From Thermoplasmata archaeon (GTDB lineage Archaea > Thermoplasmatota > Thermoplasmata > Lutacidiplasmatales > UBA184), in assembly GCA_030037815.1 (NCBI GenBank), contig JASHPZ010000062.1, forward strand, positions 1 through 63,052: a DNA stretch of 63,052 nt, in the 5' to 3' direction. The position numbers and the translations under genes are program-made. Below, piece by piece: positions 20,323-62,582 of this stretch (its first letter is position 1; every line of letters starts with the position of its first letter). The notes under the pieces are model-generated. The model saw nothing but the letters and a program-made list of their open reading frames with translations, made no database searches and was not told where the DNA came from.

Positions 20323-20415
20323 CGAGAGCCCGCGGCCCACGCCGCGACGTCAGATAGCCGTACGCGCGCCGGCCGAAGCCCTTAGGTGCCCCGAGCCGGT
20401 GGCGCCGTCGGAACC

Positions 20416-20706: not shown

Positions 20707-20723
20707 CCGACGGGTCCCCGAAC

Positions 20724-21026
20724 GTGAGCGCGATCTTCCAGCGGCCGCTCTGCGACCTGGGACGGGCCTACGACTTCGCGCTGCGCCCGTTGATCGGCGA
20801 CCCCGAGGTCGGGAGCGGCGGCGCGTGCGACGACCGCCCGCACGCGGTCGAGCTCTACTCCGCCACCACCGACCCGTCGTCGCCGACCGCCGTCTGGCAG
20901 CGGTTCTCGCTCTGCCCCGAACACGAGGAGCAGTTGCGACGGCACGACGCGAAGCTACTCGCGCGCGGCGTGCCCAGCCGCCTGCGCTCGCCCATCGCGC
21001 CGCCGATCGGGGGCGGGTCCCGATGA
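20724..21026 (+). CDS. Hypothetical protein
   Basis: GTG at 20724. 100 aa. Its stop overlaps the aldo/keto reductase ATG (ATGA). Confidence 0.4.
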   Translation: MSAIFQRPLCDLGRAYDFALRPLIGDPEVGSGGACDDRPHAVELYSATTDPSSPTAVWQRFSLCPEHEEQLRRHDAKLLARGVPSRLRSPIAPPIGGGSR

Positions 21027-23758: not shown

Positions 23759-24610
23759 CTAGCGCTTCGCGGCGCCGCGGCGGCGCGCGGCGAGTCGGGT
23801 GACCAATATAAAGATGGTCCCGAGGAAGGCGACCGCTCCGGCGAGGTACCACAGGGAATAGTTGGGCGTCGGCCCGGGGACGTAGAACGACACCGAGTAG
23901 GAGTTCTGCCCGTTGCCGAACGTGACGAGCCCGCGCGGCACGAGCAACGTCAGCGTGAACGTGTGCGTGCCGGCCGAGAGGCCGAGCGTGACGTAGGAGT
24001 AGCTGAACTGGTAGTTCTGGTTCGCGTCCAGGTTGGGCACGCTGACGTTGCCGACCTGCGTGCCGTCCAGCGCGACCAGGATCGTGAACTGCCCGACGTT
24101 CGCGGAGCCGGTGACGAGCGTCGCCTGGACGACGTACGGCTGCACGACGTGGACGAGGTAAGTGATGTTGATCGACTGGTTCTGCGTCTGGTAGACGCTC
24201 GTCACCTCGACCTGGATCGTCAGCACCTCGGTCGTGTTCGCGACCTCGAGGATCGGCCGGCCGGGGGTGCCGTTCAGGATCAGCGAGCTCGTCGGCGTGA
24301 GCGTGACGCCGGTGAGGTTGGAGCCGAGCACCTGGGCGAAGTAGGTGAGGTTCCCGATGATCGTCCCGTTCGGCGCGACCGCGGGGCCGCCCGTCGCCTG
24401 GATGATGTAGGTGGTCGAGGCGCGCAGCGCGACCACGCTCGGGCCGGTGATGTTCGCCGTGACCGAGCCCGTGGCGGGCGTGAGGCCCGACGAGGCGGAC
24501 GACGCGGCGTTCCCGCCCGCGGGCGACCCCCCGCTCGCGACGAGCCCGGCGGCGCCCAGAGGGCCGGCGACCAGGAGCGCGACCACCAGCCAGAACGACC
24601 AGCGCGTCAC
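23759..24610 (-). CDS. Secreted, C-terminally membrane-anchored surface protein rich in N-glycosylation sequons
   Basis: The GTG at 24610 overlaps the aglB TGA (GTGA), and an alternative GTG lies at 24637. N-terminal signal-like helix [15 protein letters not shown]. About 10 N-x-S/T sequons by hand count. C-terminal TM helix followed by RRRGAAKR. Confidence 0.7.
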
Positions 24611-27600
24611 CGTCGCGTCCACCTCCGGGTGCGCCACCAGCGGTAGGTGACGACCGCCGCGATCAGGACGAGCGACGGGACGAAGACGAGCACCGGGACG
24701 ACCCAGTCCGGGAGCGCGTTCGGCGGGCTCCCGACCGACGGACCGGTGACGGTGAACTGCGGTTGGCCGGGGCTCGGCGACGGGCGGATCGCCACGGTCG
24801 GGACCCCGATCGTCACGGTCGATTGGACCGCGCCCGAGGCGTTCAGCACGGTCGCCTCGACCGTGACGGAGACCGGCGGCGCGAACGCGGACGTCGTGGT
24901 CGTGAGGTTGACCCGCTGGGTCGTGTTGACGCCGGCCGCGATGTACCGGGTCGGGCCCTGCCCGGCCGACGTCGCCCCGATCGTCGCCGACCAGCCGAGC
25001 CCGGAGAGGCGGGCCTGGTCCACGATCGTCAACAGGACGGTCTCGCCCTGGTTCCCCGAGTTCGCGACGTAGAACGGCACGACCGCGCTGGTCGGGCTGA
25101 CCGTCACGCCCTGGGTCGACTTCCCGATCGACACCCCGTAGTACCCGAGGACCTTGATCTGCGGCGACGGCGACACGGAGCCGACGATCGTGCCGTTCGC
25201 CGTCTCAAATTCGATCAGCACGTTCGGGTGGTTGACCGGGGTGCCGGTCGGCACCGTGATGCGGACCTCGCCCGACGCGGTCGGCCCGTTGGGCGTCAGG
25301 TTCACCCACGGGTTCGTGAAGTTGAACGTCCAGTAGGCGGGGCTCCCGACCGCCTGCACCATGATCGGCACGTTGCCCGCGTCCCGCACGGTGTAGCCGA
25401 ACGTCGCAACCCCGCCGCCCGCGACGGTCGCGGACGTCGGTCCGACCAGCGTGCCGCCCGCCCGTTCGAGCGTCGGCACGGCGAGCGCGAGGACCGTGCC
25501 CAGGTTCGAGTTCGTCACCCGGACGGATTGGTGGGCGACCGCGTTCGAGACGACCCCGTTGAGGGAGCCCGGCGCGACCGCGGAGATCGAATAGACGCCG
25601 ACGGGCAACCCGATCGTGATCGGCGCGCCCGGCGTCACGTTCTTGAACAGGGTGACGCGGCCGAACGGGTCCTGGACGTAGACGGAGGCGGGGCCGGCCG
25701 TCGCGCCGGACGCGTTCGGGTTGGTGACGCTGATCGTGTCGGTCCACGTCGGGGAGAGCACGATGGAGGCGTTGCCGACGGACGACGGGAGCAGGAGCAG
25801 CGAGGCGAATCCGCCGAGCGGCTCGGCGCCCGAGCCGCCCGAGGCGTAGACCGAGTACGCGCCCGGGAGGACGGCGGCCGAGAAGCTGCCGTTCGTGGTG
25901 CTGACGACGGTGATGTTGTCGGTCGGGTACGGGCCGAGGAGGCGGAGCGACCCCGGGACCCGCCCGGGGACTCCGGGGCTCGTCAGCGTCCCGTTGAGGA
26001 ACACGGGGAGCGTGCGTCCGACCATCGAGATCGCGCACCGTTCCGAGGACGGCGTGACGGTACAGGAGGCGCCCGCGGCCGACGACCAGGCGGCGTTGTA
26101 CGTCCCGTTCGGCCCGATGACGGTCCCGGACGCGTTCGCGAACCCGAAGTACGTCTGGTTCGGCGGCAACGTCGCGGTGAAGGCGCCGTTGTTGACGCTC
26201 GTGACGATCCGGCTCCCGCCCGGGCCGACGAGCGTGAGGGTCGTGTTGAGCGACAGGGACGCCCCGGACGCGCCCGTGAGCGCGCCGGTCACCGCGAGGC
26301 CGGCCCGGTTGAGGACGACCTTCGGCGTGATCGTCCCGGTGGACGACACGGTGACGCGGGTCACGTTCGAGTACGTTGTGCCCCCGCCCGTCCCGGTGAC
26401 CGTCGCGGTGTACGTGCCGGGGGCCGCGTAGAACCCGTCCGTCGTGTAGTCGGTCCCGTTCGTCGAGAGGTTGAGGAGCGGGGAGGAGAGCGCGACCGTC
26501 ACGTTCGCGATCGGAACGCCCGACGGCAGCGCGAGGGTGCCGGTCGAGTTGACCTGGTAGAGCAGCGTGAGCGTCAGCGTCGAGCGCGTCGCCCCGAACG
26601 GGATGGTGGTCGAGAGGACCTGGCTCGGCAGGTAGACGACCGTGCCGTTGCCGATGACCGCCTTCGCCCCGACGCCGTAGACGCCGGGCGCGAGCGCGAG
26701 CGAGAACCGCGGACCGCCGGTGAGGTTGATGACGGAGACCGCGGTCGTGCTCTCCGCCGTGAAGTTCACGGTCACGGTCGTGCCGGACGGCAGGCCGAGC
26801 ACGGTGAGATTGGTCGGGACCGTCTGGATCGTCAGCGGGTAGGACGACATCGAGGCGAGCCCGTTCGGCGAGATGCCGCACGTGCTGGCCGACCGGAACC
26901 CGAGGCTCGTCGCCCCGACGCAGTACGACGGCGCGGAGAGCGGCAGCGTGGTCGGGAGGTACGCGGTGACCGAACCGTTGGCGTCCGCGACCAGCGGCAC
27001 GGCCGGACCGGTCGGACCCGCGGAGATCGTGACCGCGGCGTCGGCGGCGGGGTAGAACGCCCCGCTCCCGAGCGTCGCGCCGACCGAGAAGTGGGCCGTG
27101 ACCGCGCTGGAGGGGGTCAGCGAGAGCCGGGTCGTTCCGGTGAGCGTGACGGGCGCGATCGCCGCGTAGAGCGGGGTGCCGGGCGTGGAGGCGCCGGTGA
27201 GCGACAGGACGCCGTACGAGCCCGCCGGCAGAAGCAACGAGTAGCCGCCGGACGCGGCGGCGATCGTCGTCACCTGTCCGCCCGACGGCGCGTACGCCGT
27301 CACGACCGTCTCGTTGGCGCCGCTCGACCCGACCGCGCTGACGGTGCCGGAGAGCGAGACGGCCGGCGTCAGCTGGAGCGTGGGGACGACGGTCGCGAGG
27401 CCGGCGGGCGTGGAGACGCTCGAGACGCCGGCGTAGAGCTGGCTCCCGACGTAGCCGACCGCGTAGACCGCGTACTGTCCGGCGGGGAGGGCGACCGTCG
27501 CGCCCCCGTTGGGACCGGTCGTCACGACCGTCGCGTTCGCGAGCCCGGCCTCGATCGCCGAGAGCGGCGAGGTCGTCTGATTGCCGAACGTCGCGATCGG

Positions 27601-30600
27601 CGTGAACCGGACCGGGATGTTCGCGACCGGTTGTCCGTTCGCCTGCACGCTGAACGACACCAGGGTCGACGGCACGGCGGTGAGGTTGAGCGACTCCTGG
27701 GCGCCCGGGGCCGCGATGTCGACGGTCGGCCCGGGCGACCGCAACCCGGCGGAAGGCACGCTCGCCCAGACGGTGTAATTCCCGGGCCCGAGGTTCGTGA
27801 GGTTGAACCCGCCGGTCCCGTTCGTGTAGGCGGTCGCGTAGGTGCCGTTCGGGGTCCCGGCGGTGACGGTCGCGCCCGGAATCCCGACGCCGGACGACGA
27901 CGTCACGTTCCCGAAGATCCGGCCCGCCGGCAATCCGGCGGAGGAATTCACGGCCGCGCCGGGGGTGACGATCACCTCCGACTCCGAGTAGTTGTGCCCC
28001 TGGTAGACGACCGCCGAGTGGTAGGTTCCGGGGGCGACGTTCGCGAGGTTGAACGCGCCGCTCGCGTCGGTCGTGGCCGTCAGCCGCGACTGGTTCGTGT
28101 CGCCCCAGAGGACGAACTGGGCGCCCGGGGTGACCGTGTCCTTCACCGGGTCGTACGTCGTGTTGTTCGCGGTGTTCCAGTAGATCAGGCCCGAGACCGT
28201 GCCCGACGCGAGCTGGAACGTCTGGCTGATCGCGGGCGCCTGGAGGTTGTAGCCGAGCGCGTTCGGGACGTAGAAGGGGATCGTCTTGAGGATGATGTTC
28301 CCCTGCTGGCTCAGCCCCTGGAGCGTGCCCGCCGTCACGTTGATCGTGTCGTTCCCGGGCGGGAGGACGAGGGAGAACGAGCCGTCCGACGCGCTGACGG
28401 TCGTCATGTGCGGAATCCCCCACTGGTCGAACACGGTCACGCGGGCGCCGCCGACCGGCCCGCCGTTCGACGTCTCGAGGGTCCCGTAGAGGGTCTCACC
28501 GGGGTAGTAGGCGAGCATCGACTCGCCGCCCTGGAAGTAGCTCACCGCGGAGGTGTCGGCCGTGCCGTTGTTCGCCTTCGCGTTCGCGACGGCGGCGGGC
28601 TCGTTGGTCGCCGAGAAGCAGGCCGAGCCGTCGGTCGCGTTCGCCTGCGGGCAGTAGTAGGCCGTCTTGTAGACGACCATGAAGTGCTGGAGCATCCAGC
28701 CCGGCTCGAGCGGGGACGACTGGGCGGCGCCGGAGAGGCCCGGGATCCCGCCCGACAGCCCGACGTCGGTCCCGTTATAGCCGATGTAGATGTGGTAGAT
28801 CATCGAGTTGTAGAACGGTGCGAAATAGTTGATGTAGTAGTCGACCGCCGAGACCGTCGCGGGGAGCTGACCGGCCGGGTACGTCTGACCGTTCGAACCC
28901 AGGATCGTGACGTTGAAGTAGGTCGAGGGGAGGCCCGCGTCGTCGATCACGCGGCCCGTCAGGTCCGCCGGTGCGTAGTAGATGCCCGTGTCGGTCCCGC
29001 TGAACGGGAACAGGCGGGTGTCGCTCATCGCGTACCGGATCGACCAGCCGGTGTACGCCTGGACGTCGTTGTAGACGCGCGAGATCCCCGTGAGGGTGAG
29101 CGAGTTCGCGAGGTACCACTCGGTCGCGATGTACATCGCGTTGTCGTCCGTCAGCGTGGACGGGTCGACGGGGAGGTAGCGGCCGGGGTTGTTGACGACG
29201 AGGTTGTAGTCCGCGCTCGTGTTGACGAGGAGGTTGTGGAACTCGGTGAGGTTCACGCCGTCGACCGCGAGCATCTGGTTGAGCGCGGTCGGGAGGTACG
29301 GGAGGCCGGAGGCCTTCTGCTCCGCCTGCAAGAGGGTGACCGCGAGGACGGCGATCGCCTGCGACTCGTTCTGGGAGAGCAGGAACTGGCCCGCCGGGTC
29401 GATGCCGTTCTGGAAGTTGTCGGCGACGCTCGGGTGGTCGCCCTGGTCGATCGCCTGGAACCCGTAGTCCCACCAACTGATGAACGCCGGACGGTTCGAC
29501 GGCGCGACGTTCGTATCCTGCTGCGCGAGCCAGTTGTAGCCGGCGCTATCGTACTGGTTCGGGGTGTCGAGCGAGCTGCCCGCGGCGCCGAAGTAGTTCG
29601 AGGCCGGCGCGGAGGAGTTGAGGCTCAGCCACGACGGGATCGTCTTCGCCACCTGGGCCGCGAACTGGTCCTTCGTGTTCCCCGGGATCCCCGCGTCGAT
29701 CGAGATCCAGATGTTCGGGAGAAGCAGCGCCACCACGACGCCGATGATCACGACGTGGCGCACCTTGAACGACTTCCGGAACGCGGAGAACTGGCTCCGC
29801 CGGTCGGAGAGCGACGCGACGTTGCGCCGGAGCTCCGGGTACCGTCCGACCTCGAGGGCGCGGCGGATCGCCTCCGCCGGCAACAGCGCGAACGCGGGCG
29901 AGCCGAGGAGGAAGAACTTCGACGCCGAGATCGGCAGGTAGATCGACAGGATCGCGAAGACGAGGAAGACGAGGAGGTACCGCTTGAACCGGTGGTGGAC
30001 GGTGAGGTAGCCGAACAGCGCGAGCCCGACGAACGCGAGGAAGAACGTGAACACCCCGTAGCCGATGATCAGTTCGTCGATGGACGGCGCCTGCGCCTCC
30101 GCGACGGTCGAGTAGATCAGGGTCTTGACGAAGTACCCCTGCCCCGTGATCAGGCTCGTGAACAGGCTCGGGCGGAACACCGCGAGCGCGAGCGTCCCGA
30201 GCCCGAGGACGAGGACCATCAGCGGGATCGAGAACACCCACGGGATGTCCCGCATCAGGAGGAACGGGAGGAGCAGGATGAGGATCCCGAAGAAGAGCAG
30301 CGCCGGCAGGACGAAGAACGTCGCGAACCCCGGCGCCGACAACGAGCCGTACTGGGTGAGGTAGTACGGCATCTCCATCGGGAAGCCGACCAGCCCGACG
30401 ATCCACGTCACGACGTAGAGCCCGAACGAGTCGATCCGGCGGACCCGCTCGATGACCATCGCGACCAGGACGCCGACCCCGATGACCACGACGTCGTACG
30501 TGTACCCCTGCCAGGCGAGGGCGAGGGCGCCGAGGGAGACGCCGGTGAAGACGGCCCATTTCACGGCCGTACGTTCGGTCCGTAGGAAGTTCCGCAAACC

Positions 30601-31224
30601 GGGCCAGTACTGCCGGGGGTCGCGGTAGCTCTCGATCCACCGCCGACTCCCGACCGCTTTGACCGTACGGATGTAGCCGTACAACACGACCAGGATGAGG
30701 AACGTGTAGAACGAGAGGTAGTTCGCGTACCCGAAGATCGACGAGTCGATGCTGGCGCTCAGGAACGGGAAGATCAGGACCGCGATGAGGCCGGTCCGGC
30801 GCCCGCTCACCTCGCGTCCGATCAGGTAGATCGGGAACACGGAGAGCGCGGCCCACAGCGGCGCCTGGAGGTCGAGGAACCACGCGCCCGCGACGACGGC
30901 GTTCCCGCCGAAGAACGGGGCGAACAGGAGCCCCAGGATGGCGTTCATCCAGTCGAACAGCGGCTCCCGCGGGTTGATCGCCCCGACCGGGAACCGGAGC
31001 ATCGGGTCGCGGACGAGGTTGTGGTGCGTGAGGATGATGTACTGCATCACCCGCGAGTGGTAGTACGAATCGGAGCCGCCGGCGTAGGTGTAGAGCGGGC
31101 CGTACTGCGCGATGATCGGGTAGGCGAAGATCGTCCGGATCGCGAGGGTTAGCCCGAACGCGGTCAGCAGGATCGCGACCGTCCACCCGTGACGGCTCCA
31201 CCAACCCGGCTGCGTCGTGTCCAT
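24607..31224 (-). CDS. aglB: Archaeal oligosaccharyltransferase AglB (STT3 family) fused to a ~1300-aa repeat-rich extracellular extension with a C-terminal TM anchor
   Basis: A single 2205-codon ORF. The multi-TM N-terminus carries [13 protein letters not shown] is encoded at nt 29461-29475 (aa 584-588). From about aa 910 there are at least 10 beta-sandwich repeats of the type TDxSGxFxLxxLxPGxYxV, then a CARDB/NEW3-like segment, a final hydrophobic helix and [10 protein letters not shown]. Confidence 0.9.
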
Positions 31225-31272
31225 GCGTGGCCGGGACTCCTGGGAACCGGCGGCGCGCGAGACCTAGGGGGG

Positions 31273-31282
31273 CTATAAATAG
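31273..31282 (-). promoter_or_regulatory. TATA box candidate (CTATTTATAG on the minus strand) for aglB
   Basis: A strong AT island 50-58 nt upstream of the aglB ATG at 31224. Confidence 0.45.
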
Positions 31283-31351
31283 GCTACTATCGGAAACCAC
31301 CGTACGGCGCGACGCGCGCCAACCGGTAGCGGTCCGGAGCTCATCCGGTCG

Positions 31352-31891
31352 CTAGTCCACCACGCGGAATCGGTAGAACCACCGGCCGTCACCGACATCG
31401 TACGGCTCGACCCGGACCGCGAGACCGATGGCGAGGTCGGCCCACGGCCGCCCCTCGATCCGTCCAAACAGACGCAGCGGGACTCCGTCCAGGTCCACCA
31501 GACCGACCGCGAACGGCACATCGGCCTCCATCCCCATCGGCGCCCCCGCGAGGACCGCGCTGAACGCGTAGATGCGTCCGGATTCGGGAAGGTCGACCCA
31601 GGAGAGCTCTTCGGAGTGACACCGCGGGCACGCCGTCCGGGGCGGCCAGTGAAGGAGGTCGTCCCGCGCGCACCGCGTCGTCGAGAGCCGCCCGGCCGCG
31701 AGGCGCTCGAAGAACCGGGCGAGGCGGGTGTCCTTCTCGGACTCGAGCGGCACGAAGTCGAGGAGGAACGGCCGGGCCGGCCCCGACTTCCGCTCGGTGG
31801 GCGGGGCCGGGTCGGCGCGGGGGGGCGACGACGCGTCGGGCGTCGGCGCGTCTCCCGTCGACGTTCGGCGCCGCGGGAGGTCGACCGTCAC
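31352..31891 (-). CDS. DUF35 OB-fold/zinc-ribbon protein (thiolase partner), copy 1
   Basis: The zinc ribbon is CARDDLLHWPPRTACPRC, followed by an OB-fold tail (VPFAVGLVDLDGV). The GTG at 31891 overlaps the thiolase TGA (GTGA). Confidence 0.75.
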   Translation of the reverse strand: MTVDLPRRRTSTGDAPTPDASSPPRADPAPPTERKSGPARPFLLDFVPLESEKDTRLARFFERLAAGRLSTTRCARDDLLHWPPRTACPRCHSEELSWVDLPESGRIYAFSAVLAGAPMGMEADVPFAVGLVDLDGVPLRLFGRIEGRPWADLAIGLAVRVEPYDVGDGRWFYRFRVVD

Positions 31892-33066
31892 GCGGCGCCT
31901 CCGCGCTGGTAGACCATGACCGAATGGACGTTCGCGCTGCCGGAGAGGTTGTGGACGAGCGCCCACTCCGCGTTCTCCGCCGGTCGTGCGGCGGTGCCGG
32001 AGAGCTGCCGGAACACCTCGACCGCCTGCGCGACCCCGGTCGCGCCGAGCGGGTGGCCGCAACCGAGGAGTCCGCCCCGCGGGTTGACGACCAGGTCGCC
32101 GCCGAGGTCGCCGCGGCCGTCGGTGGCGAACGTGCCGCCCTGGCCCGGCGGGCAGAGGCCGAGCGCTTCGTACTCGACGATCTCCGAGATCGTGAAGCAG
32201 TCGTGCACTTCCGCGACGTCGACGTCGCGGATGCCGATCTTCGCCCGGCCGAGCGCCTCGTGGGCGGCTCGGGTCAACCCGGGCCACTCCGTCAGCGACC
32301 CCGCGTTCGCGAGATTGTGGAAATCCGAATATTGGCCCGTGCCCCGGATCCACGCCGGGGTCCGGGTGTACCGGCGCACGTGGTCCTCGCTCGCGAGCAC
32401 CACGGCGGCCGCTCCGTCCGTCATGGACGAGCAGTCTCCCAACCGCAGCGGCGGGGCGATGACCGGGAGCCGGAGGAGCTTCTCGCGGCTGAACGTCTTC
32501 TCGTAGAACTGGGAGTGCGGGTTCGCGTTCGCGAACCGGTGGTTCTTCTCGGAGACGGCGGCGAGCGCCTCCTCGGTCGTCCCGTGTTCGAGCATGTGGC
32601 GCTGCGCGACCATCGCGAAGAACGGCGGCGCGGTCGCACCGGCCGGTCCGTCCCAGGCGCGGTCCATCACGCACGCCATCGACGCGTTCGCCTCGGCCAT
32701 CGAGGGAAGGTTCATCTTCTCGACCCCGACCGCGACCGCGACGTCCGAGAGGCCCGACGCGATCGCGGCGTACGCCGAACGGATCGCGGACTGGCCGGAG
32801 GCGCAGGCGAGCTCGGTCCGCTGGATGATCCGGTGCGGTCGGAGGCCCATCTGCTCCGCCGCGAGGGGGGCCACGTGGGATTGGAACGCAAATCGCTCGG
32901 GTTCGGCGGCGCCGACGAACAACGAGTCGACGTCCTCGGTCGTCAGCGCCGGGACCTCCCGGAACAGGGCGGCGCCGACCTCCTGCGCGAGCTCGGCCCA
33001 GGTGAGCGGTCGGACCCCGAACTTCGTGGTCGCGCCGCCGACGATCGCGACCGCCCGACCCGTCAT
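31888..33066 (-). CDS. Thiolase-family protein (SCP-x / acetyl-CoA C-acyltransferase-like), copy 1
   Basis: Active-site Cys context [13 protein letters not shown]-terminal motifs [17 protein letters not shown] and GSANVHSV. The ATG at 33066 overlaps the upstream stop (ATGA). Confidence 0.85.
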
Positions 33067-34196
33067 CGCGCCTCCCCCCGGACCGCCGCCGCGACGAGGT
33101 CTCCCGCCGCGCTGGTCGACACCGAGCCTCCCTGGTCGTAGGTCTTCGCCGCGCCGCGGGCGAGCGTCCGCGCGACCGCGGACTCGAGGCGGTCGGCCTG
33201 GCCCGTGAGCCGCCGGTCGGCGTGCCGGTCGCCAAGCCACCGGAGCATCTGTTCGACCGCAAAGAACGTCGCGAACGGGTTCACCTGGTTCTTCCCCGCG
33301 TACTTCGGGGCCGAGCCGTGGACCGGCTCGAACATCCCGTGGGCGCTTCCGATGTTGCCGCCGGAGGCGAACCCCATTCCGCCCTGGAGGACCGCGGCGA
33401 GGTCGGTGATGATGTCGCCCATCATGTTGGGCGCGACGACCACGTTGTAGTGTTCCGGGTTCCGCACGAGCCACTGCGTGAACGCGTCCACGTAGGCGTA
33501 GTCGCGCGGGATCTCGGAGTACTCCTGCCCGACCCGGTCGAACGTCTCGCGGAAGAATCGGCACCCTTCGAGCACGTTCGCCTTGTCGACGCAGGTGACT
33601 CGGCGCACGCCGTCCTCGGGGGCGCCGCGCGCGCGGGCCCGCGCGAGCTCGAACGCGTACCGGATCACGCGCTCGGCGCCCTTCCGCGTGATCAGCCGCG
33701 TGTCGACGGCGACCTCCGTCTCGCCGCCACGGGTCAATCGGCCCCGGGCGGGCGTGTAGAGGTCCTCCGTGTTCTCGCGGACGATGACCATGTCGACGTT
33801 CTTCGGGTCCCAGACGGTCCGGTACTCGCCGCTGATCCGGTGGGTCACGCCCGGGTAGAGTCGGCAGGGCCGGACGTTCGCGTAGAGGTCGAGCCCCTCC
33901 CGGAGCCCCAGGACGAGCGCGCGCCCGGCGATGTCACCGTTGGGCAGCGTCGCGCCCGGCCACCCGACGGCCCCCAAGAGGATCGCGTCCGCCCGGTGGG
34001 CGGCCTCCTCGGCCGCGGGCTCCCACTCCTTCCCGGCCTTCAGGTAGTACTGGCCCCCGCCGGGATACTCCGTCGGATGCCACGGCGCCGGCCCGTTCTC
34101 GCCGAGCGCGGCCAACACCTTGAGCCCCTCGCGGACGACCTCCGGGCCCGTGCCGTCGCCGCCGAAGACGGCGACCTCGTACCCGGCGTCCTTCAT
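33063..34196 (-). CDS. leuB: 3-isopropylmalate dehydrogenase family protein (LeuB / homoisocitrate / tartrate dehydrogenase-like)
   Basis: Motifs [19 protein letters not shown] and [14 protein letters not shown]. 377 aa. ATGA overlap with leuD. Substrate cannot be assigned by eye. Confidence 0.8.
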
Positions 34197-34720
34197 GGGG
34201 CGGCCCTCGCCGCCGCCTTCTGCGCCTCGAGCTCGCGCCGGACCTTCTCGACCAGTCCCCCGGCCTCCAACAGCTCGAGCAGGTGGGACGGCAGGGGCGG
34301 AAACTCGATCGAGCGTCCGGTGCGGAGGTTGGTGATCCGTCCCTTCCGCATCTCGATCCGGGCGATTTCGCCCTTCTCGAATAGGGCGCGGACGCCGCGG
34401 GCCTCGATCGTCGGGAGCCCGAGGTTGATCGCGTTGCGGAAGAAGATCCGCGCGAACGAGTCGGCGACCACCGCGCCGACGCCAATCGCGCGCATCGCCT
34501 GGGGGGCGTGCTCGCGGCTCGAGCCGCACCCGAAGTTCTCGTCGGCGACCAGGATGTCGCCCGGCCGCGCCTCCTGAGCGAACTCGGGGAGCGCGATCTC
34601 GAAGACGTGCTTCTTGAGCTCGTTCGGGTCGATGATCGTGAGGTACTTGCCCGAGATGATCTGGTCGGTGTCGACGTCGTGCGGCAGCGTCCAGACGCGG
34701 CCTTCGATGACCTCCTGCAT
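34193..34720 (-). CDS. leuD: 3-isopropylmalate (or homoaconitate) dehydratase small subunit
   Basis: Motifs [13 protein letters not shown] and [12 protein letters not shown]. 175 aa (archaeal short type). Confidence 0.85.
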
Positions 34721-34728
34721 CCGTCCCC

Positions 34729-36012
34729 CTAGACCAGGTCGCGCGGGTCCGCGACCTCGCCGCGGATCGCGCTCGCGACCACCGCAGCCGGCGACATCAG
34801 GTAGATGCGGGCCTCCTTCGCACCCATCCGCCCGGGGAAGTTGCGGTTGGACGACGAGGCGCATGCCTCCTCGGGGGCGAGGATCCCCATGTTCCCCCCG
34901 AAGCAGGCGGAGCAGCTCGAGTTCGTGAACACCGCGCCCGCCTCGGTGAACACCTCGATCAGCCCCTCCTTGAGGCACTGCTCGTAGATCGGCGTGGAGG
35001 CCGGCGAGACGATGAACCGAACGCCCTTCGCGACCGTGTGGCCCTTCATCAGCGCGGCCCCTTCACGGATGTCCTCGATGCGGGCGTTGGTGCACGAGCC
35101 GAGGAACGCCTGGTCGATCGTCACGTGCTCCCGCGCGACGTCGCTCAACGGGCGGACGTTGTCCGGCGAGTAGGGGCAGGCGACCATCGGCGGCATGTCG
35201 TCCACGTCGATCCGGATCGTCCGCTCGTACGACGCGTCCCGGTCGGGCTGCGTCGGGTGCATCGGATGCTTCGCGATCTTCTCGAGGTACTCGTAGGTCT
35301 TCGAGTCGGGCGCCACCATGCCCGCCTTCGCGCCCATCTCGGTCGTCATGTTGCAGATCGTGAACCGTTCGGGCATCGAGAGGCCCTCGACGGTCGACCC
35401 GCCGAACTCGACCGCCTTGTACGTCGCGCCGGTCGTCTTGACCTCGCCGAGCACGCGCAAGACGAGGTCCTTCGCGGTCACGCCTTTCCCCAGCCGGCCG
35501 TTCACCTCGATGCGGATCGTCGGCGGCACCTTGAGCCACAGCCGACCGAGCGCGAGGACGGCCGCCATCTCGGTCGGGCCGACTCCGGCGGCGACGGCGC
35601 CCATCGCGCCTAGCATGTTCGTGTGCGAGTCGGTGCCGACGGCGAGGTCCCCGGGGACGACCCAGCCGTTCTCGGCGAGGATCTGGTGGCAGATCCCGTG
35701 GCGGCCGACGTCGTAGAAGTGGGGGAGGTTCACCTCCGCGGCGAACTTGCGGAGGATGCGGTGCAGGACGGCGGCGCCCTCGGTGGACGCCGGCACCCAA
35801 TGGTCGATCGCAATCACGACGCGGTCCGGGTCCCAGACCTTCTCCGCGCCCATCTGGTGGAACGGCGCGACCGTTTGCGCGCCCTGTTCGTGCATCATCG
35901 CCAGGTCGACGTTCCCCTCGACGATCTGGCCCGGGACGACCCGGTCGAGGCCCGCGGACCGTGCGAGGATCTTTTCGGCCAGCGTCTGCCCGTGTCCGTT
36001 GGAGTTCGTCAT
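34729..36012 (-). CDS. leuC: 3-isopropylmalate (or homoaconitate) dehydratase large subunit
   Basis: Aconitase-family motifs VGTDSHT, GSCTNARIED and CSACFG. 427 aa. The ATG overlaps the upstream stop (ATGA). Confidence 0.88.
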   Translation of the reverse strand: MTNSNGHGQTLAEKILARSAGLDRVVPGQIVEGNVDLAMMHEQGAQTVAPFHQMGAEKVWDPDRVVIAIDHWVPASTEGAAVLHRILRKFAAEVNLPHFYDVGRHGICHQILAENGWVVPGDLAVGTDSHTNMLGAMGAVAAGVGPTEMAAVLALGRLWLKVPPTIRIEVNGRLGKGVTAKDLVLRVLGEVKTTGATYKAVEFGGSTVEGLSMPERFTICNMTTEMGAKAGMVAPDSKTYEYLEKIAKHPMHPTQPDRDASYERTIRIDVDDMPPMVACPYSPDNVRPLSDVAREHVTIDQAFLGSCTNARIEDIREGAALMKGHTVAKGVRFIVSPASTPIYEQCLKEGLIEVFTEAGAVFTNSSCSACFGGNMGILAPEEACASSSNRNFPGRMGAKEARIYLMSPAAVVASAIRGEVADPRDLV

Positions 36013-37256
36013 GCGTTCGCCGCCCGGATCCCGACCGCGTCCACCATCGTCCAGAACTCCTCGTCGGAGAGGCCGGGCCGCTCGAACAGCGCCCGGTACT
36101 CGTGGAGGAACCGCTGGAGGTCCTCCTTCGAGCGCGCCTCCGTCTCGGTCTTCACGCGGTCGAGGAGCTCGAGGAGGAGGGCGTCCGGCGCGGTCAGTCC
36201 GCGCTCCTTGAGCTTCTCCACGATCGCCGCCTTGCCGGTGTGCTTGCCGAGGATCATCTGGCGGTGGCGGCCGACCAGCTCGGGCTGGATCGGCTCGTAG
36301 GTGAGGGTGTTCGCGAGGATGCCGTGCGTGTGGATGCCGGCTTCGTGCGAGAACGCGTTGTACCCGACCAGGGCCTTGTTCGCCGCGACGGGGACCCCCG
36401 AGAGCTCCTCCACGAGGCGGGAAAGCTCGTGCATCCGCTCGGTACGGATCCCCGTCCGGACGTGGTAGAGCGACTCGAGGCCGAGCACGACCTCCTCGAA
36501 GGAGGCGTTGCCGGCCCGCTCGCCGAGCCCGTTCACGCACACCTGCGGGGCGACGGCGCCGACCTCGACCGCGGTCAGGGTGTTCGCGGTGGCGAGTCCG
36601 AAGTCGTTGTGGCAGTGGACGGAGAGGTCCTTCGGTCGGACCCGGAGGAGGAACTCCTTCAGGAACCAGCGGAACGTCAACGGCGTCATGATGCCGACCG
36701 TGTCGGCCACCACGAGGCGGTCGGCCCCGGCCTCCTGGACCGCGCGGTAGAGTCGCTCGACGAAGTCGAACGGAGCGCGGACGGTGTCCTCGGTGACGTA
36801 GGCGACGTGGAGGCCCGCCTCCTTCGCGCGGCGCACCGAGTCGACGGACGCGCGCAGAACTTCGTCCTGCGACATCTTGAGTTTGTACTTGAGGTGGACC
36901 TGGCTCGCCGCGACGAAGATCGCGATGTGGGTCGCGCCGCTCGCGATCACCGCGTCGACGTCCCGCGGTACGGTCCGCGCCGCGGCGAGGACGTGCGCCC
37001 GCAGTCCGGCGTGGGCGACCAGGTGCACCGCCCGCGCCTCCTCTTCGGAGACGACCGGTATGCCGGCGTTGAGGACCCCGACCCCCATTTCGCTCAGGAC
37101 GGTCGCGATGCGGAGCTTCTCTTCCGGCGTGAAGTGCACGCCGGGCGCCTGCTCCCCATCCCGGAGCGTTTCGTCCCACAGTTCCACCGTTTCGGGCAAA
37201 CGGCGCTTGTGCGCCGTCTCCGTGTGGTAGTCCTCGACGAGCCGCGGCTCGGCCAT
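36009..37256 (-). CDS. 2-isopropylmalate / homocitrate / citramalate synthase family enzyme (short form without the LeuA-dimer regulatory domain)
   Basis: Motifs [26 protein letters not shown] and GLGERAGNA. 415 aa. Confidence 0.85.
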
Positions 37257-37416
37257 CGACTCTCCGACGGTGGGGGCCGCATTAACGTTTGTCGCGCCGA
37301 GCGAGCGGCGCGGGCGGCCCGGGGCGCGCCGTCGGCCGAAAACGCCGCCCATGCGTTAAATACGCCCCCGACCTGAAACGAGCAAAGTAGCGCGCGAGCG
37401 CTCTTCGGAAACCACG

Positions 37417-39210
37417 ATGACGACACCTGCCGCCCGAACCGTTCCGATCTCCGGAGAGTCGGGACCGGTCGCCCCGACCCGTCCCCTCGAGCTTGCGGAC
37501 CTCAGCGTGATGATCGGAGGGCAGGGCGGCGACGGGACCCTCACCGTCTCGGACCTGCTCGGCCGGTACTTCCGGAAGCGGGGCCTCTACGTCTACACCT
37601 CGCGGAACGTCCTCTCGCGGATTCGGGGCGGTCACGCCGACGCGAGCGTGCGCGCGAGCCGCGACGCGGTTGCCGCCGTGAAGTCGAAGGTCGACGTCCT
37701 CGTCGCGTTCGACCGCGAGGCGATCGAGCTCGGACGCGCCGAGCTCGAATCGCACGGCTTCGTCCTCTACGACTCCACGACGTTCCAGTCCGACCTGCCG
37801 AACTCGGTGGGGTTCCCGTTCGCGACCCTGGTCGGGGGCCCGCTCGGCGCTCCGATCTTCAAGAACACGGCCGCCTACGGGGCCCTCTCGGTCCTGCTCG
37901 GCTTCGACCCGGCGATGACGCGTTCGGTCATCGAGGAGCGGTTCAAGCGGCGCGGGGGCGAAGCGCTCGAGAAGAACCTGAAGGCGCTCGAGATCGGGCG
38001 GAAGGCCGCGCTCGAAGCCCCGGGGGTCGCGGGCCGGTTCTCGGTGACGGACGGCGACGCGCACAATCTGATCCTCACGACGGGCAACCAGGCCGTCGCG
38101 CTCGGTTTCGTCGTGGGTGGGGGCCGGTTCTTCGCCGGGTACCCGATCACCCCGGCGACCGAGATCATGGAGTACCTCCAGCGGTACCTCCCGGCGTTCC
38201 ACGGGGTCGTCCGCCAGGCCGAGGACGAGCTCGCCGCGGTGAACATGATCATCGGCGCGTCGTACGCCGGCGCGCGCGTGATGACGTCCACGAGCGGGCC
38301 GGGCCTCAGCCTGATGACCGAGGGGATCGGGCACGCCGGCGCCGCGGAGGTCCCGATCGTGATCGCCGACTGTCAGCGCGTCGGACCGTCGACGGGCCAG
38401 CCGACCCGTCACGAACAGTCGGACCTCTCCCACCTCGCGAACCTGGGCCACGGGGAGTTCCCGCGGTTCATCCTCGCACCGGCGACCCCCGACGATGCGT
38501 TCCATCTGACGATCGACGCGCTCAACCTCGCCGACCGTTGGCGCCTCCCGGTGATCCTGCTCCTCGACCAGGCGCTCTGCCAGAACACGACGACGTCGGT
38601 CCGCTTCGACGGCACCGGCGCGCGCGTCGACCGCGGGAAGCGGCTCGCCTCCGACGCGGCCGAGCGGCTCACCCAGTACAAGGTCTACGAGGCGACCGAG
38701 GACGGCGTCAGCCCGTTCGCGCCGCCGGGCACCCCGGGCCTCTGGTCCGAGGTGACGGGGAACGAGCACGACGAGTGGGGCCACGTCTCCGTCAACGTCC
38801 CGAACCGCATCCGGATGATGCGGAAGCGGATGGAGAAGATGGTGAAGGCACGGGACGAACTCCCGTCCTGCCGCACGTTCGGACCGTCGAGCGCGAAGAT
38901 CGGGCTGATCGGCTACGGCAGCACGTCCGGGCCGATCGACGAGGTGCAGCGGACCCTGTCGAACCGCGGCGTCGCGACTCGGTACCTCCAGGCGCGCACG
39001 GTCTATCCGGTCCCCGTCCACGAGATCGACCCGTTCCTCGCCTCGGTCGATGTCGCGTACGTCATCGAACACAACTACACCGGCCAGTTCGCGCGGCTGC
39101 TCCGCGAGACGATGCCGTGGCACCACGCGAAGATGCGGTCGATCCTGAAGTACGACGGACACACGTTCCGCGCGCCCGACGTCATCGCCGAGATCCGGGA
39201 GGTCGCGTAG
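37417..39210 (+). CDS. 2-oxoacid:ferredoxin oxidoreductase subunit alpha (gamma-alpha fusion type)
   Basis: N-terminal gamma-like domain (IGGQGGDG), then alpha-domain motifs GYPITPATEI and TSGPGLSLM. 597 aa. Confidence 0.88.
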   Translation: MTTPAARTVPISGESGPVAPTRPLELADLSVMIGGQGGDGTLTVSDLLGRYFRKRGLYVYTSRNVLSRIRGGHADASVRASRDAVAAVKSKVDVLVAFDREAIELGRAELESHGFVLYDSTTFQSDLPNSVGFPFATLVGGPLGAPIFKNTAAYGALSVLLGFDPAMTRSVIEERFKRRGGEALEKNLKALEIGRKAALEAPGVAGRFSVTDGDAHNLILTTGNQAVALGFVVGGGRFFAGYPITPATEIMEYLQRYLPAFHGVVRQAEDELAAVNMIIGASYAGARVMTSTSGPGLSLMTEGIGHAGAAEVPIVIADCQRVGPSTGQPTRHEQSDLSHLANLGHGEFPRFILAPATPDDAFHLTIDALNLADRWRLPVILLLDQALCQNTTTSVRFDGTGARVDRGKRLASDAAERLTQYKVYEATEDGVSPFAPPGTPGLWSEVTGNEHDEWGHVSVNVPNRIRMMRKRMEKMVKARDELPSCRTFGPSSAKIGLIGYGSTSGPIDEVQRTLSNRGVATRYLQARTVYPVPVHEIDPFLASVDVAYVIEHNYTGQFARLLRETMPWHHAKMRSILKYDGHTFRAPDVIAEIREVA

Positions 39211-39211: not shown

Positions 39212-40081
39212 ATGCCAGCCCAGTCCGCGAAGCCGGTTCCCCCAATCTGGTGCCCGGGGTGCGGGGACTTCAGCGTGCTGGCGGCGGTGAAGCGCGCCGC
39301 GGCCGACCTCAAGATCCCGGTGCACGACCTGGTCTTGGTCGGCGGGATCGGCTGCTCGGGGTCGATCCACAACTTCCTCGAGGTCAACGGGATCCACGCG
39401 CTCCACGGGCGCCTCCTCGCCCAGGCGGTAGGGGTCAAGCTCGCCAATCCGGCGCTCACGGTGGTCGCCGCCGGCGGCGACGGGGACGGCTACGCGATCG
39501 GGATGGGGCACTTCATGCACGCGTTCAAGAAGAACGCGTCGATCCTCTACATCGTGATGAACAACGAGACGTACGGGCTCACCAAGGGCCAGGCGTCGCC
39601 CACGAGCCAGCTCGGGTTCGAGGGGAACGTCGAGCCACCGTTCCACTCGATCCTCACCGCCCTCTCGATCCCCGCGCCCAACTTCATCGCGCGGACGTTC
39701 TCGGGCGACCCGAAGGGGATGACGGCGATCCTCTCGGAGGCGCTCCGGTTCAACCAGGAGGGCCGCGGGTTCGCGTTCGTCGAGGACCTCTCCCCGTGCG
39801 TGACGTACAACGACACGTACAAGCTGTGGCGGGAGAAGGTCGTCGACGTCGCGAAGATGCCGAACTACGACCCGACCGACCGCAAGGTGATGTTCCAGCT
39901 CTGCCTCGAGGCGGTCGAACAGGGCCGCATCCCGATCGGCGTGTTCCACCGCCCGAAGGAGGTCGCCGCCGACGGGCTCGAGCGCAAGCTCGTCCCCGGC
40001 CCGGACGGTCCCGCCCGGACGGACATCCGCGTCGAGCCGAACTACGCGGCGTACGAGAAGCTGCTCGCCGGGCTCGCGTAG
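39212..40081 (+). CDS. 2-oxoacid:ferredoxin oxidoreductase subunit beta (TPP-binding)
   Basis: Motifs WCPGCGDF and GGDGDGYAIGMGH...NNETYGLTKGQ. It starts 1 nt after the alpha-subunit stop. Confidence 0.88.
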   Translation: MPAQSAKPVPPIWCPGCGDFSVLAAVKRAAADLKIPVHDLVLVGGIGCSGSIHNFLEVNGIHALHGRLLAQAVGVKLANPALTVVAAGGDGDGYAIGMGHFMHAFKKNASILYIVMNNETYGLTKGQASPTSQLGFEGNVEPPFHSILTALSIPAPNFIARTFSGDPKGMTAILSEALRFNQEGRGFAFVEDLSPCVTYNDTYKLWREKVVDVAKMPNYDPTDRKVMFQLCLEAVEQGRIPIGVFHRPKEVAADGLERKLVPGPDGPARTDIRVEPNYAAYEKLLAGLA

Positions 40082-60909: not shown

Positions 60910-62079
60910 ATGCGGGAGGTCGGCATCCTGGGCGTCGGTCAGACGAAGTTCGGCGAATTGTGGGACCGTTCGTTCCGCGAGATCGGGATCGAGGCGGGGC
61001 TCGAGGCGCTCGTGGACGCGAAGCTCTCGTCGGCCGACCTGGAGGCGCTCTACCTCGGCAACATGGCCTCGGGGACGCTGATCAGCCAGGAGCACATCGC
61101 CCCGTTGATCCTCGACTACGCCGGGCTCGCCGGCCGCCACCTCCCGTCGATGCGGGTCGAGGGCGGAGGCGCCTCCGGCGCGCTCGCGCTCCACCAGGGG
61201 TACCTCGCGGTCGCGAGCGGGCTCTACGATTACGTCGTGGTCGGCGGGGCGGAGAAGCTGACGGACGTGCCGGACGCGACCGCGACCCAGATCACCGCCT
61301 CCACGGCCGACCACGAGTGGGAGGTCGTCTTCGGCGCGACCCTGCCGGCGCTGTGGGGCCTGATCGCGCGCCGCCACATGCACGACTACGGCACGACCCG
61401 CGAACAGATCGGCCAGGTCGCGGTGCAGGACCACGAGCACGGGTCGAAGAACCCGCTCGCGCACTACCGCAACAAGATCTCGCTCGCGCAGGTCCTCGAC
61501 GCGGGACCGATCGCGGAGCCGCTCGGCGTGCTCGACTGTGCGCCGTTCTCGGACGGCGCGGCCGCGGTCGTGCTCGGCCCGATGGAGGAGGCGCGCCGAC
61601 GCTCCGAGACGCCGATCCGGATCGCCGCGAGCCAGGTGGCGTGCGACTCGATGGCGCTCCAGCACCGCGCCGACCCGACGACGCTCGAGTCGACCAGCTC
61701 GGCCGCGCGCCGGGCGTTCCAGCAGGCGCGGCGGGCGCCGAAGGACGTCCAGGTCGCCGAGATCCACGACGCGTACACGATCGCGGCCCTCGTCTCGCTC
61801 GAGGACCTCGGGTTCGTCGAGAAGGGGAAGTCCGGTCCGGCGTTCGCCGCCGGTGAGTTCGCCCACGGCGGACGCGTGACGGTCAACCCGTCCGGCGGGC
61901 TCAAGGCCCAAGGGCGCCCGTTCGGCGCCGTCGGGGTCGCGCAGGTGGTCGAGCTGGTCCGGCAACTGCGCGGCGAGGCGAAGGAGCGGCAGGTGCCGAA
62001 CGCGACGGTCGGGCTGGCGCAGGACGTCGGCGGGACGGGGGCGACGTCGGTCGTCCACCTCCTGGAGCGCGCGAACTAG
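60910..62079 (+). CDS. Acetyl-CoA acetyltransferase (archaeal thiolase), copy 2
   Basis: MREVGILGVGQTKFGE... and NPSGGLKAQGRPFGAVG. It starts 3 nt after the HMGCS stop. Confidence 0.88.
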   Translation: MREVGILGVGQTKFGELWDRSFREIGIEAGLEALVDAKLSSADLEALYLGNMASGTLISQEHIAPLILDYAGLAGRHLPSMRVEGGGASGALALHQGYLAVASGLYDYVVVGGAEKLTDVPDATATQITASTADHEWEVVFGATLPALWGLIARRHMHDYGTTREQIGQVAVQDHEHGSKNPLAHYRNKISLAQVLDAGPIAEPLGVLDCAPFSDGAAAVVLGPMEEARRRSETPIRIAASQVACDSMALQHRADPTTLESTSSAARRAFQQARRAPKDVQVAEIHDAYTIAALVSLEDLGFVEKGKSGPAFAAGEFAHGGRVTVNPSGGLKAQGRPFGAVGVAQVVELVRQLRGEAKERQVPNATVGLAQDVGGTGATSVVHLLERAN

Positions 62080-62090
62080 GGGAGGGAACG

Positions 62091-62582
62091 ATGTCGGTCG
62101 CACGATTCTGGCGCGAGACGCCGCGGCGGTACAATCTCGGCGGGTCGAAGTGCTCGGTCTGCGGGACGATCTACTTCCCGCCGAGGGCCGTCTGCCCGCA
62201 GTGCACGCACCACCGGCAGTCGATCGAGAAGATGCTGCCGTTCCAGCTCTCCGGCGAGGGGGAGGTCCTCTCCTACACGATCGTCCACGAAGCCGCGGAA
62301 GGGTTCGAGATGCAGGTGCCGTACGCGCTCGCGCTCGTGAAGACGGTCGAAGGTCCGGTCCTCACGGGCCAGGTCGTCGACATCGACCCGGCGACCTTGC
62401 GCATCGGCCAGCGGGTCCACGCGACGTTCCGCAAGCTCCGCGAGGAGGGGAAGGCCGGCGTGATCCACTACGGCTACAAGTTCGCCCCCGTCGAGGACGC
62501 GGACCCGCGGCCGCCGCCACGAACTCCCGCGGCGACGGCCCCCGCGACCGACGGCGCCCCGGGGGACCGGGCGGCGGCGTGA
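62091..62582 (+). CDS. DUF35 OB-fold/zinc-ribbon protein (scaffold of the thiolase/HMGCS complex), copy 2
   Basis: The zinc ribbon is CSVCGTIYFPPRAVCPQC, followed by an OB-fold (VPYALALVKTVEGP). Confidence 0.85.
   Translation: MSVARFWRETPRRYNLGGSKCSVCGTIYFPPRAVCPQCTHHRQSIEKMLPFQLSGEGEVLSYTIVHEAAEGFEMQVPYALALVKTVEGPVLTGQVVDIDPATLRIGQRVHATFRKLREEGKAGVIHYGYKFAPVEDADPRPPPRTPAATAPATDGAPGDRAAA

Follow-up and report, generated by a model that had tools for sequence, protein, structure and literature searches.

A stretch of 63,052 nucleotides from a Thermoplasmata archaeon (contig JASHPZ010000062.1, assembly GCA_030037815.1; the whole stretch is called the window below) carries on its minus strand six contiguous genes, in which four enzymes resembling those of 2-oxoacid chain elongation are followed by a ketothiolase (KT) and its DUF35 partner. 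The source archaeon belongs to the Lutacidiplasmatales (UBA184/TMEG), and the GC content of the window is about 72%. This order, formerly TMEG, is found in acidic soil, peat and mine drainage, has genomes of about 2.1 Mb with about 69% GC, and is predicted to consist of heterotrophs on fatty acids, peptides and carbohydrates (PMC9287336). The window DNA is present in DNA runs of peat metagenomes. An exact-sequence look-up of the window thiolase returned no record, and its homologues at 80-88% identity are, among the matches listed (more than 120 clusters within the clade), all from metagenome-assembled genomes named 'Thermoplasmata archaeon'.

Gene content of the operon

Genes in the window were called by a three-position periodicity score; calling by GC3 only was dropped, since antisense shadow frames are likewise high in GC3. 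The operon consists of the following genes, in order of transcription.

36009..37256, minus strand: 2-alkylmalate synthase, short form, of the LeuA/CimA/HCS family (415 aa, ATG start; HMGL-like and HCS_D2 domains)
34729..36012, minus strand: LeuC-type large subunit of an aconitase-family dehydratase/isomerase (427 aa; Aconitase domain)
34193..34720, minus strand: LeuD-type small subunit of the dehydratase (175 aa; Aconitase_C domain)
33063..34196, minus strand: LeuB-like beta-decarboxylating dehydrogenase (377 aa; Iso_dh domain)
31888..33066, minus strand: SCP-x-type ketothiolase (392 aa; Thiolase_N/Thiolase_C_1 domains)
31352..31891, minus strand: DUF35 partner of the thiolase (179 aa, GTG start; zf-ChsH2 and OB_ChsH2_C domains)

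Each of the six open reading frames (ORFs) ends in one stop codon, both in the ORF listing and on direct translation. Four junctions are 4-nt overlaps, ATGA at 36009-36012, 34193-34196 and 33063-33066 and GTGA at 31888-31891, and the LeuC/LeuD junction is an 8-nt gap. A preliminary description of this DNA had given the same six minus-strand ORFs, the four overlaps and the gap, which re-listing reproduced exactly, and its family assignments were borne out by Pfam and NCBIfam. None of the six proteins reaches an NCBIfam equivalog cut-off, and the subfamily cut-offs are passed by LeuC and LeuD only. The predicted catalytic residues are intact across all six proteins.

Conservation and distribution

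A species-level genome scan provided related loci, of which the best 80 of 165 confirmed ones were used, including UBA184 and 'Candidatus Lutacidiplasmatales'; counts of gene order are restricted to the 84 related loci that have enough flanking sequence. The order synthase-LeuC-LeuD-LeuB-thiolase-DUF35 is colinear and free of insertions in all of them (84/84). Identity to the window proteins across these relatives is 71-86% for the synthase, 77-89% for LeuC, 71-89% for LeuD, 69-86% for the LeuB-like protein, 78-87% for the thiolase and 56-80% for DUF35, the thiolase being the most conserved protein of the operon. The 4-nt overlap recurs at the synthase/LeuC junction in 69 of 73 loci, at LeuD/LeuB in 76 of 80, at LeuB/thiolase in 82 of 84 and at thiolase/DUF35 in 57 of 81, and a short gap separates LeuC from LeuD in every locus. 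Overlaps occupy four of the five operon junctions, as against 10 possible ones at most among 36 same-strand junctions elsewhere in the window, and 84 independent assemblies repeat the arrangement.

The flanks of the operon are less stable than the operon itself. Upstream, on the opposite strand, lies a divergently transcribed 2-oxoacid:ferredoxin oxidoreductase (OFOR).

37417-39210, plus strand: OFOR alpha subunit (597 aa)
39212-40081, plus strand: OFOR beta subunit (289 aa)

OFOR is missing from this position in two genomes (L041 and L052) and displaced in a third (L050), and the six-gene block is intact in each. The downstream flank is rearranged in seven loci (L003, L010, L047, L051 and L085-L087), again with an intact block; in several loci the downstream gene AglB is replaced by CRISPR-Cas or split off by an inserted gene. 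In L003 and L010 (about 13350-21000), the place of AglB downstream of the operon is taken by a transposase together with a CRISPR-Cas cassette of type I-E (Cse1, Cse2, Cas7, Cas5, Cas6e and Cas1). AglB itself (24607-31224, minus strand) is a giant STT3/AglB oligosaccharyltransferase of 2205 aa, whose long C-terminal region consists of repeats of the CarboxypepD_reg type; in most relatives it is the next gene downstream of the operon, and it overlaps the gene after it by 4 nt.

The most divergent lineage of the set, L085-L087, has a thiolase 70% identical to that of the window, with the flanking OFOR alpha subunit at 59% and AglB at 55%, and it retains both the operon and the same pocket residues in the synthase. 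In L085 the operon proteins are 68-75% identical to those of the window (DUF35 58%), as against 55-64% for the flanking OFOR and AglB. The tight coupling claimed in the preliminary description thus stands in that the six genes form one unit throughout the order and survive rearrangement of the flanks, although overlaps in this genome also join unrelated genes, as discussed below.

Outside the order the picture changes. An exhaustive search of cluster representatives (50% identity) returned one full-length relative of the thiolase at 70% identity and the next at 46% or less. Seven of these outside thiolases (46% or less) were inspected, and five had informative neighbourhoods, in each of which the thiolase is followed by a DUF35 gene. 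The five neighbourhoods contain, respectively, ETF and acyl-CoA dehydrogenase; acetone-carboxylase-like hydantoinases, CoA transferases and an SDR; CoA transferases and a MaoC hydratase; 3-hydroxyacyl-CoA dehydrogenase; and 3-hydroxyacyl-CoA dehydrogenase with acyl-CoA synthetase and aldehyde:ferredoxin oxidoreductase. Leu-like genes were found in none of the five. These contexts, together with the drop in identity, mark the linkage as an invention of the Lutacidiplasmatales lineage. Its absence from related genomes, which the preliminary description had named as a refutation, was not seen in the 84 loci of the order, and the linkage is limited to this one lineage. Judging from their relatives, the thiolase and DUF35 genes were taken over together from ancestors of the beta-oxidation type.

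Promoter and transcription

A promoter-like element precedes the first gene.

37280..37292, minus strand: BRE/TATA element, CAAACGTTAAT, 24-36 nt upstream of the synthase ATG, found by a scan for A/T-rich sequence

In an alignment of 68 intergenic regions this box is conserved as CAAAnGTTAAT, and it is the only conserved A/T box that serves the six genes. A/T boxes are conspicuous in this GC-rich DNA, and runs of at least 6 nt of A/T were counted within -80 to -10 of start codons. Such runs occur upstream of the synthase in 31 of 71 loci, and in this interval none was found upstream of the thiolase (0/86 loci) or of DUF35 (0/81). A separate promoter before the thiolase had been named in the preliminary description as an observation that would speak against a joint pathway; no A/T box stands there in the 86 loci. 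The neighbours have boxes of their own: a TTAAATA box at 37351-37365 serves the divergent OFOR, and AglB has a TTTATA box within a TATA-like element at 31271-31286. The six genes are thus supported, on the evidence of these predicted promoters, as one transcription unit starting upstream of the synthase.

No RNA runs are listed as containing the window itself, for which peat DNA runs only are listed. A related operon, L031, is present in four metatranscriptomes, and contigs of 100% identity from these cover parts of its synthase, LeuC, LeuD, LeuB and thiolase genes. One contig (6479-6645 of that locus) crosses the LeuD/LeuB junction at 6617-6620, and another (7709-7937) crosses the LeuB/thiolase junction at 7747-7750. 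The contigs are short and strandless, and carry-over of DNA is possible; they favour read-through transcription and fall short of proving a single 6-kb RNA. The expected single transcript is thereby bridged at two junctions in a relative.

The synthase and its pocket

The synthase matches PF00682 (HMGL-like TIM barrel) with 237 bits and PF22617 (HCS_D2) with 83 bits. Pfam gives no match to the LeuA_dimer regulatory domain, and the protein ends 40 aa past HCS_D2, in keeping with the earlier remark that the regulatory domain of LeuA is lacking. The C-terminal tail of about 40 aa (residues ~375-415, encoded at 36009-36134) is conserved in the clade and unmatched in Pfam, and may act as a lid or in docking.

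The best NCBIfam matches of the synthase are an isopropylmalate synthase (IPMS) subfamily model (443 bits against a cut-off of 517) and LEU1_arch (438 against 485), the best equivalog is NF041069 (393 against 600), and the models of HCS type follow with nifV (363 against 463) and LysS (309 against 414). Among solved structures it aligns best, and about equally well, with LeuA (3RMJ, 244 bits) and HCS (6KTQ, 238 bits). Among 71 orthologues, the motifs T30-L-R32-D33-G-E-Q and H214-C-H216 are invariant, and conservation extends to the pocket residues I66, A92, A112, F114, A152, V154, T155, V182 and A184, although Ser or Cys can take the place of A184.

The residues that contact the distal carboxylate in HCS, a His (in AHSR) and an Arg (in VRFTAED of SaHCS), correspond to A92 and A152 in the window synthase; a literature search on specificity residues of HCS found nothing. 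For E. coli LeuA, we take L73 (Leu143 in the Mt enzyme) to correspond to A92 of the window, H97 to A112, S139 to V154, N167 to V182 and P169 to A184, a mapping whose E. coli numbering agrees with the published mutant names. A92 is matched to both the HCS His and LeuA L73 because both fall in one alignment column. The substitutions H97A, S139G, N167A and P169A allow LeuA to elongate longer 2-oxoacids (PMC3370425), and the Leu143 site of Mt-IPMS tunes preference for chain length (bioRxiv 10.1101/2021.09.28.462264). In comparison with the engineered E. coli enzyme carrying these four changes, the window synthase appears to have Ala at the equivalents of H97, P169 and Mt-L143. The comparison extends to Pogostemon isobutylmalate synthase, a plant system in which an elongated 2-oxoacid supplies an acyl unit. 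These engineered and plant enzymes are derivatives of bacterial or plant LeuA, whereas the scaffold in the window is of the archaeal short form, which resembles HCS.

By its predicted pocket, then, the synthase departs from canonical LeuA, five positions having small or hydrophobic residues instead, and it is no textbook LeuA, CimA or HCS. The caution that its substrate could not be assigned by eye was well placed: pocket residues and model scores fit no characterised class.

Substrate class of the isomerase and the dehydrogenase

The other three leu-like proteins narrow the class of substrate. LeuC passes NF001614 (548 bits against 385) and TIGR02086 (489 against 410), and among solved structures it scores 426 bits to the large subunit of the Methanocaldococcus jannaschii isopropylmalate (IPM)/citramalate isomerase, MJ0499, as against 367 to homoaconitase MJ1003. 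LeuD passes TIGR02087 (176 against 109) and scores 164 bits to MJ1277, the small subunit of the IPM/citramalate isomerase, as against 112 to the homoaconitase subunit MJ1271. Its substrate loop, K25-Y-L-T-I, is conserved in 79 orthologues; the corresponding loops read YLVY in MJ1277 and YLRT in MJ1271. Inspection of this loop, which had been proposed as a check, gave YLTI without the Arg of homoaconitase, and the exact substrate is not readable from it.

The LeuB-like protein scores 312 bits to PRK03437 LeuB (cut-off 393), 260 to TTC and 246 to LEU3_arch, and it is closer to bacterial IPM dehydrogenase (IPMDH), with tartrate dehydrogenase about equal, than to the archaeal LEU3 type. V95 and L96 stand at the positions of L90 and L91 of Thermus thermophilus IPMDH and are conserved in 82 orthologues. 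The specificity residue Arg85 of Thermus HICDH presumably aligns with L96, and ICDH has Ser/Asn at these positions.

The affinities of LeuCD, the Ala residues of the synthase and the hydrophobic V95/L96 point together to a module that would handle non-acidic substrates. Lysine or coenzyme B chemistry, both of which the preliminary description had kept among the options, is unlikely for this module, being disfavoured by the specificity residues of the synthase and LeuD and by the affinity of LeuC. Elongation of acidic substrates, to 2-oxoadipate for lysine by the alpha-aminoadipate route or to 2-oxosuberate for coenzyme B, can hardly be upheld: the methanogen homoaconitase small-subunit model is the top NCBIfam match of LeuD, although below its cut-off (181 against 230), and the synthase scores nearly equally against the HCS structure, yet Ala replaces the distal-carboxylate His and Arg of HCS, the loop of LeuD is not YLRT, LeuC prefers the IPM/citramalate isomerase over homoaconitase (426 against 367 bits), and the dehydrogenase presumably has Leu in place of the specificity Arg of HICDH.

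The thiolase/DUF35 pair

In the operon thiolase, C88, H288-D-C290-F and G-H338-P are invariant in 88 sequences. The pair also matches models and structures of the BbsB/BbsA type, and the solved relatives of the DUF35 partner are the ChsH2 DUF35, the DUF35 of 6ESQ and BbsA. The N-terminal part of the partner, about 40 aa, is rich in Pro and Arg and varies between species. The first pair of its zinc ribbon reads C74-x-x-D77 rather than C-x-x-C, with Asp in 65 of 78 orthologues and Cys in 5.

A second thiolase/DUF35 pair stands elsewhere in the window, behind HMG-CoA synthase (HMGCS), and serves here as a comparator.

59870-60907, plus strand: HMG-CoA synthase
60910-62079, plus strand: thiolase of the mevalonate trio
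62091-62582, plus strand: DUF35 protein of the mevalonate trio

HMGCS passes NF003274 (525 bits against 244) and TIGR00748, and its thiolase passes PRK06064 (493 against 420). The operon thiolase is 36% identical to this copy, and the two DUF35 proteins are 27% identical. Against the mevalonate thiolase of 6ESQ, the operon copy scores 204 bits and the HMGCS-linked copy 356. HMGCS adjacency, the identities and these scores make the operon pair a non-canonical paralogue, as had been proposed from the presence of a separate copy at 60910..62582. The mevalonate copy has HDAY where the operon thiolase and the 6ESQ thiolase have HDCF; HDCF was considered as a feature by which the operon thiolase could be told apart from the mevalonate type, and rejected, since the 6ESQ enzyme is itself of the mevalonate type. 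Directly upstream of the trio, at 58962-59834 on the plus strand, an ORF of XRE-type helix-turn-helix appearance was seen by eye.

That the operon thiolase should be a redundant second acetoacetyl-CoA thiolase, feeding HMGCS, is very improbable. Its best solved relative is indeed the acetoacetyl-CoA thiolase of Methanothermococcus thermolithotrophicus, at 204 bits, with intact catalytic residues. Against this, it is the other pair that stands directly behind HMGCS and reaches 356 bits to 6ESQ, the two pairs have diverged to 36% and 27% identity, and the operon thiolases form a tight, isolated clade (78-87% identity) under strong constraint, unlike a spare copy.

Comparison with known systems

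To our knowledge, archaea often hold several KT/DUF35 pairs, and no more than two roles are known for these, in mevalonate synthesis and in the Sulfolobus fatty-acid synthase. The 6ESQ complex of M. thermolithotrophicus shares with the window pair the adjacency of thiolase and DUF35, the catalytic Cys, HDCF and GHP; it differs in that no HMGCS stands beside the operon pair, the orthologue of that complex in the window being 59870-62582. KT/DUF35 pairs act in condensation and dock the next enzyme (bioRxiv 10.1101/2024.07.05.601840). Saci_1121/1120 of Sulfolobus acidocaldarius is likewise an extra pair beside the mevalonate one, and condensation has been proposed for it (bioRxiv 10.1101/2024.07.05.601840); its partners are a ketoacyl-CoA reductase and a MaoC dehydratase, whereas the neighbours in the window are leu-type enzymes. 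The nearest relatives of the operon thiolase (42-46% identity) are found in pairs of the beta-oxidation or BbsAB type, which always include DUF35 and adjoin ETF, acyl-CoA dehydrogenase, 3-hydroxyacyl-CoA dehydrogenase or CoA transferases, never leu-like genes.

For the first four genes, the closest likeness is to the citramalate/leucine enzymes of M. jannaschii, which belong to the same four families, act in the same chemical order, include the nearest relatives of LeuC and LeuD (MJ0499/MJ1277) and share hydrophobic specificity positions. In comparison with that organism, the window synthase has no regulatory domain and five pocket changes, the dehydrogenase is of a more bacterial type, and the genes are gathered in one operon with a thiolase/DUF35 pair.

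The Haloferax mediterranei route from acetyl-CoA and pyruvate through 2-oxobutyrate and propionyl-CoA to condensation resembles the flow proposed below, the likeness being one of route. We know of no description of the genes of that route as one operon. In H. mediterranei, citramalate and 2-oxobutyrate lead to propionyl-CoA, which is condensed by BktB-alpha/beta, a two-subunit ketothiolase in which the thiolase has an OB-fold partner (PMC7137286). The Haloferax product feeds the polyhydroxyalkanoate (PHA) PHBV, and no PHA genes were seen in the window.

A literature search found no described link between DUF35, thiolase and isopropylmalate. The novelty, of which the literature searched held no description, lies in the fixed union of known families within an operon that a whole archaeal order shares, and in the pocket of the synthase, which matches no characterised specificity.

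A possible route from 2-oxoacid elongation to acyl-CoA condensation

The six genes suggest, tentatively, a flow in which elongated non-acidic 2-oxoacids are converted to acyl-CoA by OFOR and condensed by the thiolase/DUF35 pair. The synthase would join acetyl-CoA to an aliphatic 2-oxoacid, the simplest case being the conversion of pyruvate towards 2-oxobutyrate, and its pocket would allow longer substrates. LeuCD would isomerise the alkylmalate, and the LeuB-like enzyme would decarboxylate it oxidatively to a 2-oxoacid one carbon longer. OFOR would turn this into an acyl-CoA such as propionyl-CoA, which the thiolase/DUF35 pair would condense with acetyl-CoA to a 3-ketoacyl-CoA such as 3-ketovaleryl-CoA, and the output would be odd- or branched-chain building blocks. 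OFOR (domains POR, POR_N, TPP_enzyme_C and PFO_beta_C; TIGR03710 588 bits against a cut-off of 483) shares its intergenic region with the operon in about 95% of genomes, and is a candidate for the link from 2-oxoacid to acyl-CoA that is associated with the operon and lies outside it.

Several observations support this flow. Gene order follows the order of the pathway, and translational coupling would suit an equal flux through the six proteins. The synthase, too, is atypical and free of regulation. The operon behaves as a unit, with a single promoter, the RNA contigs of L031 and a divergence slower than that of the flanks in L085. Precedents exist for condensation by KT/DUF35 pairs, as does the BktB-alpha/beta route of Haloferax.

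A more ambitious form of the scheme is improbable: a natural '+1' pathway in which the synthase would have an enlarged hydrophobic pocket, and straight or branched aliphatic 2-oxoacids would be elongated, possibly in repeated rounds, converted by OFOR to primers and extended by thiolase/DUF35. An archaeon devoid of acyl carrier protein would thereby gain access to acyl-CoAs that are odd-chain, branched or of medium length, such as 3-hydroxyvalerate units or an octanoyl precursor of lipoate.

A number of points weigh against any such route. The linkage is confined to Lutacidiplasmatales. Synteny in the order extends to most instances of the flanking genes TiaS, OFOR and AglB, and conserved gene order by itself therefore counts for little. 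Outside the operon, the window has 36 same-strand junctions, of which as many as 10 could be overlaps of 4 nt or 1 nt, some of them between unrelated genes. One such run, at 45751-48540 on the minus strand, comprises four genes joined by possible GTGA overlaps, which by eye encode an Sm-like protein, a riboflavin-kinase-like regulator, a radical-SAM-like protein and NAD synthetase, so overlaps in this genome also join genes of unrelated function. The operon and its immediate neighbours include no ketoacyl-CoA reductase, dehydratase, enoyl reductase or PHA synthase, and so account for no further step of a 3-ketoacyl-CoA. The nearest kin of the thiolase pair stand in catabolic clusters, and thiolases are reversible. 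OFOR is probably the general pyruvate/2-oxoglutarate enzyme of the cell, and it is not adjacent to the operon in two genomes. Finally, if the genomes have no other leuA/leuCD/leuB set, the module must first serve Leu/Ile synthesis. Pfam found no genes of branched-chain amino acid biosynthesis among 10 other ORFs of the window, and none stood out by eye elsewhere in it; the supplementary-table text of PMC9287336 covered here has no rows on a further leuA/leuCD/leuB or ilv set.

Synthesis of branched-chain amino acids, with a thiolase that is either unrelated to it or supplies its acetyl-CoA, is nearly as likely as the elongation-condensation route. In one form of this explanation, which taken by itself is somewhat unlikely, the leu-like genes serve Leu and/or, through citramalate, Ile synthesis, and the thiolase/DUF35 pair works in the thiolytic direction, on acetoacetyl-CoA or 3-ketoacyl-CoA, and feeds acetyl-CoA to the synthase, so that the two parts would share a metabolite rather than form a linear pathway. 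LeuC and LeuD are indeed nearest to the Leu/Ile isomerase of M. jannaschii and the dehydrogenase to IPMDHs; the four leu-like proteins are strongly conserved, as core biosynthetic enzymes would be; in Sulfolobales, the model NF041069 treats synthases of this short form, likewise devoid of a regulatory domain, as true IPMS; and the kin of the thiolase/DUF35 pair in clusters of beta-oxidation type would suit an order of predicted fatty-acid degraders. The synthase fits less well: five of its pocket positions are unlike those of canonical LeuA, and it stays below every equivalog cut-off for IPMS or CimA. Bulk catabolism would moreover call for thiolase expression far higher than that of an amino-acid pathway and differently regulated, yet this thiolase is translationally coupled to LeuB in 82 of 84 genomes, and no other beta-oxidation gene lies near the operon.

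In the other form, no more probable than the first, there is no pathway link: the ancestor of the order would have acquired the thiolase/DUF35 pair by insertion behind a leu-type operon, and dependence on that promoter would have preserved the pair since, the two parts having unrelated housekeeping roles. The restriction to a single lineage, the synteny of the TiaS, OFOR and AglB neighbourhood, overlaps between apparently unrelated genes such as those at 45751-48540, and the lack of leu-like genes in the five informative outside contexts all agree with this. On the other hand, the six-gene block is unbroken even in the several genomes whose flanks are broken, the overlap between LeuB and thiolase matches those within the leu module in conservation, and the operon proteins of the L085 lineage have diverged in step with one another and less than the flanks.

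If elongation and condensation do form one pathway, the operon would be a natural case of '+1' keto-acid elongation joined to Claisen condensation, so far mainly an engineering design, and would bear on the synthesis of non-isoprenoid acyl chains in archaea. If the two modules are unlinked, the operon nonetheless clearly marks the Lutacidiplasmatales, and it cautions against inferring pathways from overlapping genes.

Other features of the window

ARAGORN places an 80-nt tRNA-His (GTG) at 13652-13731 on the minus strand, which is unconfirmed or atypical, no Rfam family reaching the gathering score there; Rfam likewise gives no RNA family at gathering score anywhere in the window. Genes of CoA and central carbon metabolism occur at 9310-12930 (minus strand), 17272-18117 (plus strand) and 48545-49735 (plus strand), and comprise alpha and beta subunits of succinyl-CoA-synthetase type, CoaBC, an SDR and citrate synthase; the best match of the SDR is 2,4-dienoyl-CoA reductase, at 285 bits (cut-off 318). 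At 1-2267 on the plus strand, a geranylgeranyl-reductase-like flavoprotein and a polyprenyl synthetase share an overlapping junction, and with the mevalonate trio they place genes for isoprenoid lipids at both ends of the window.

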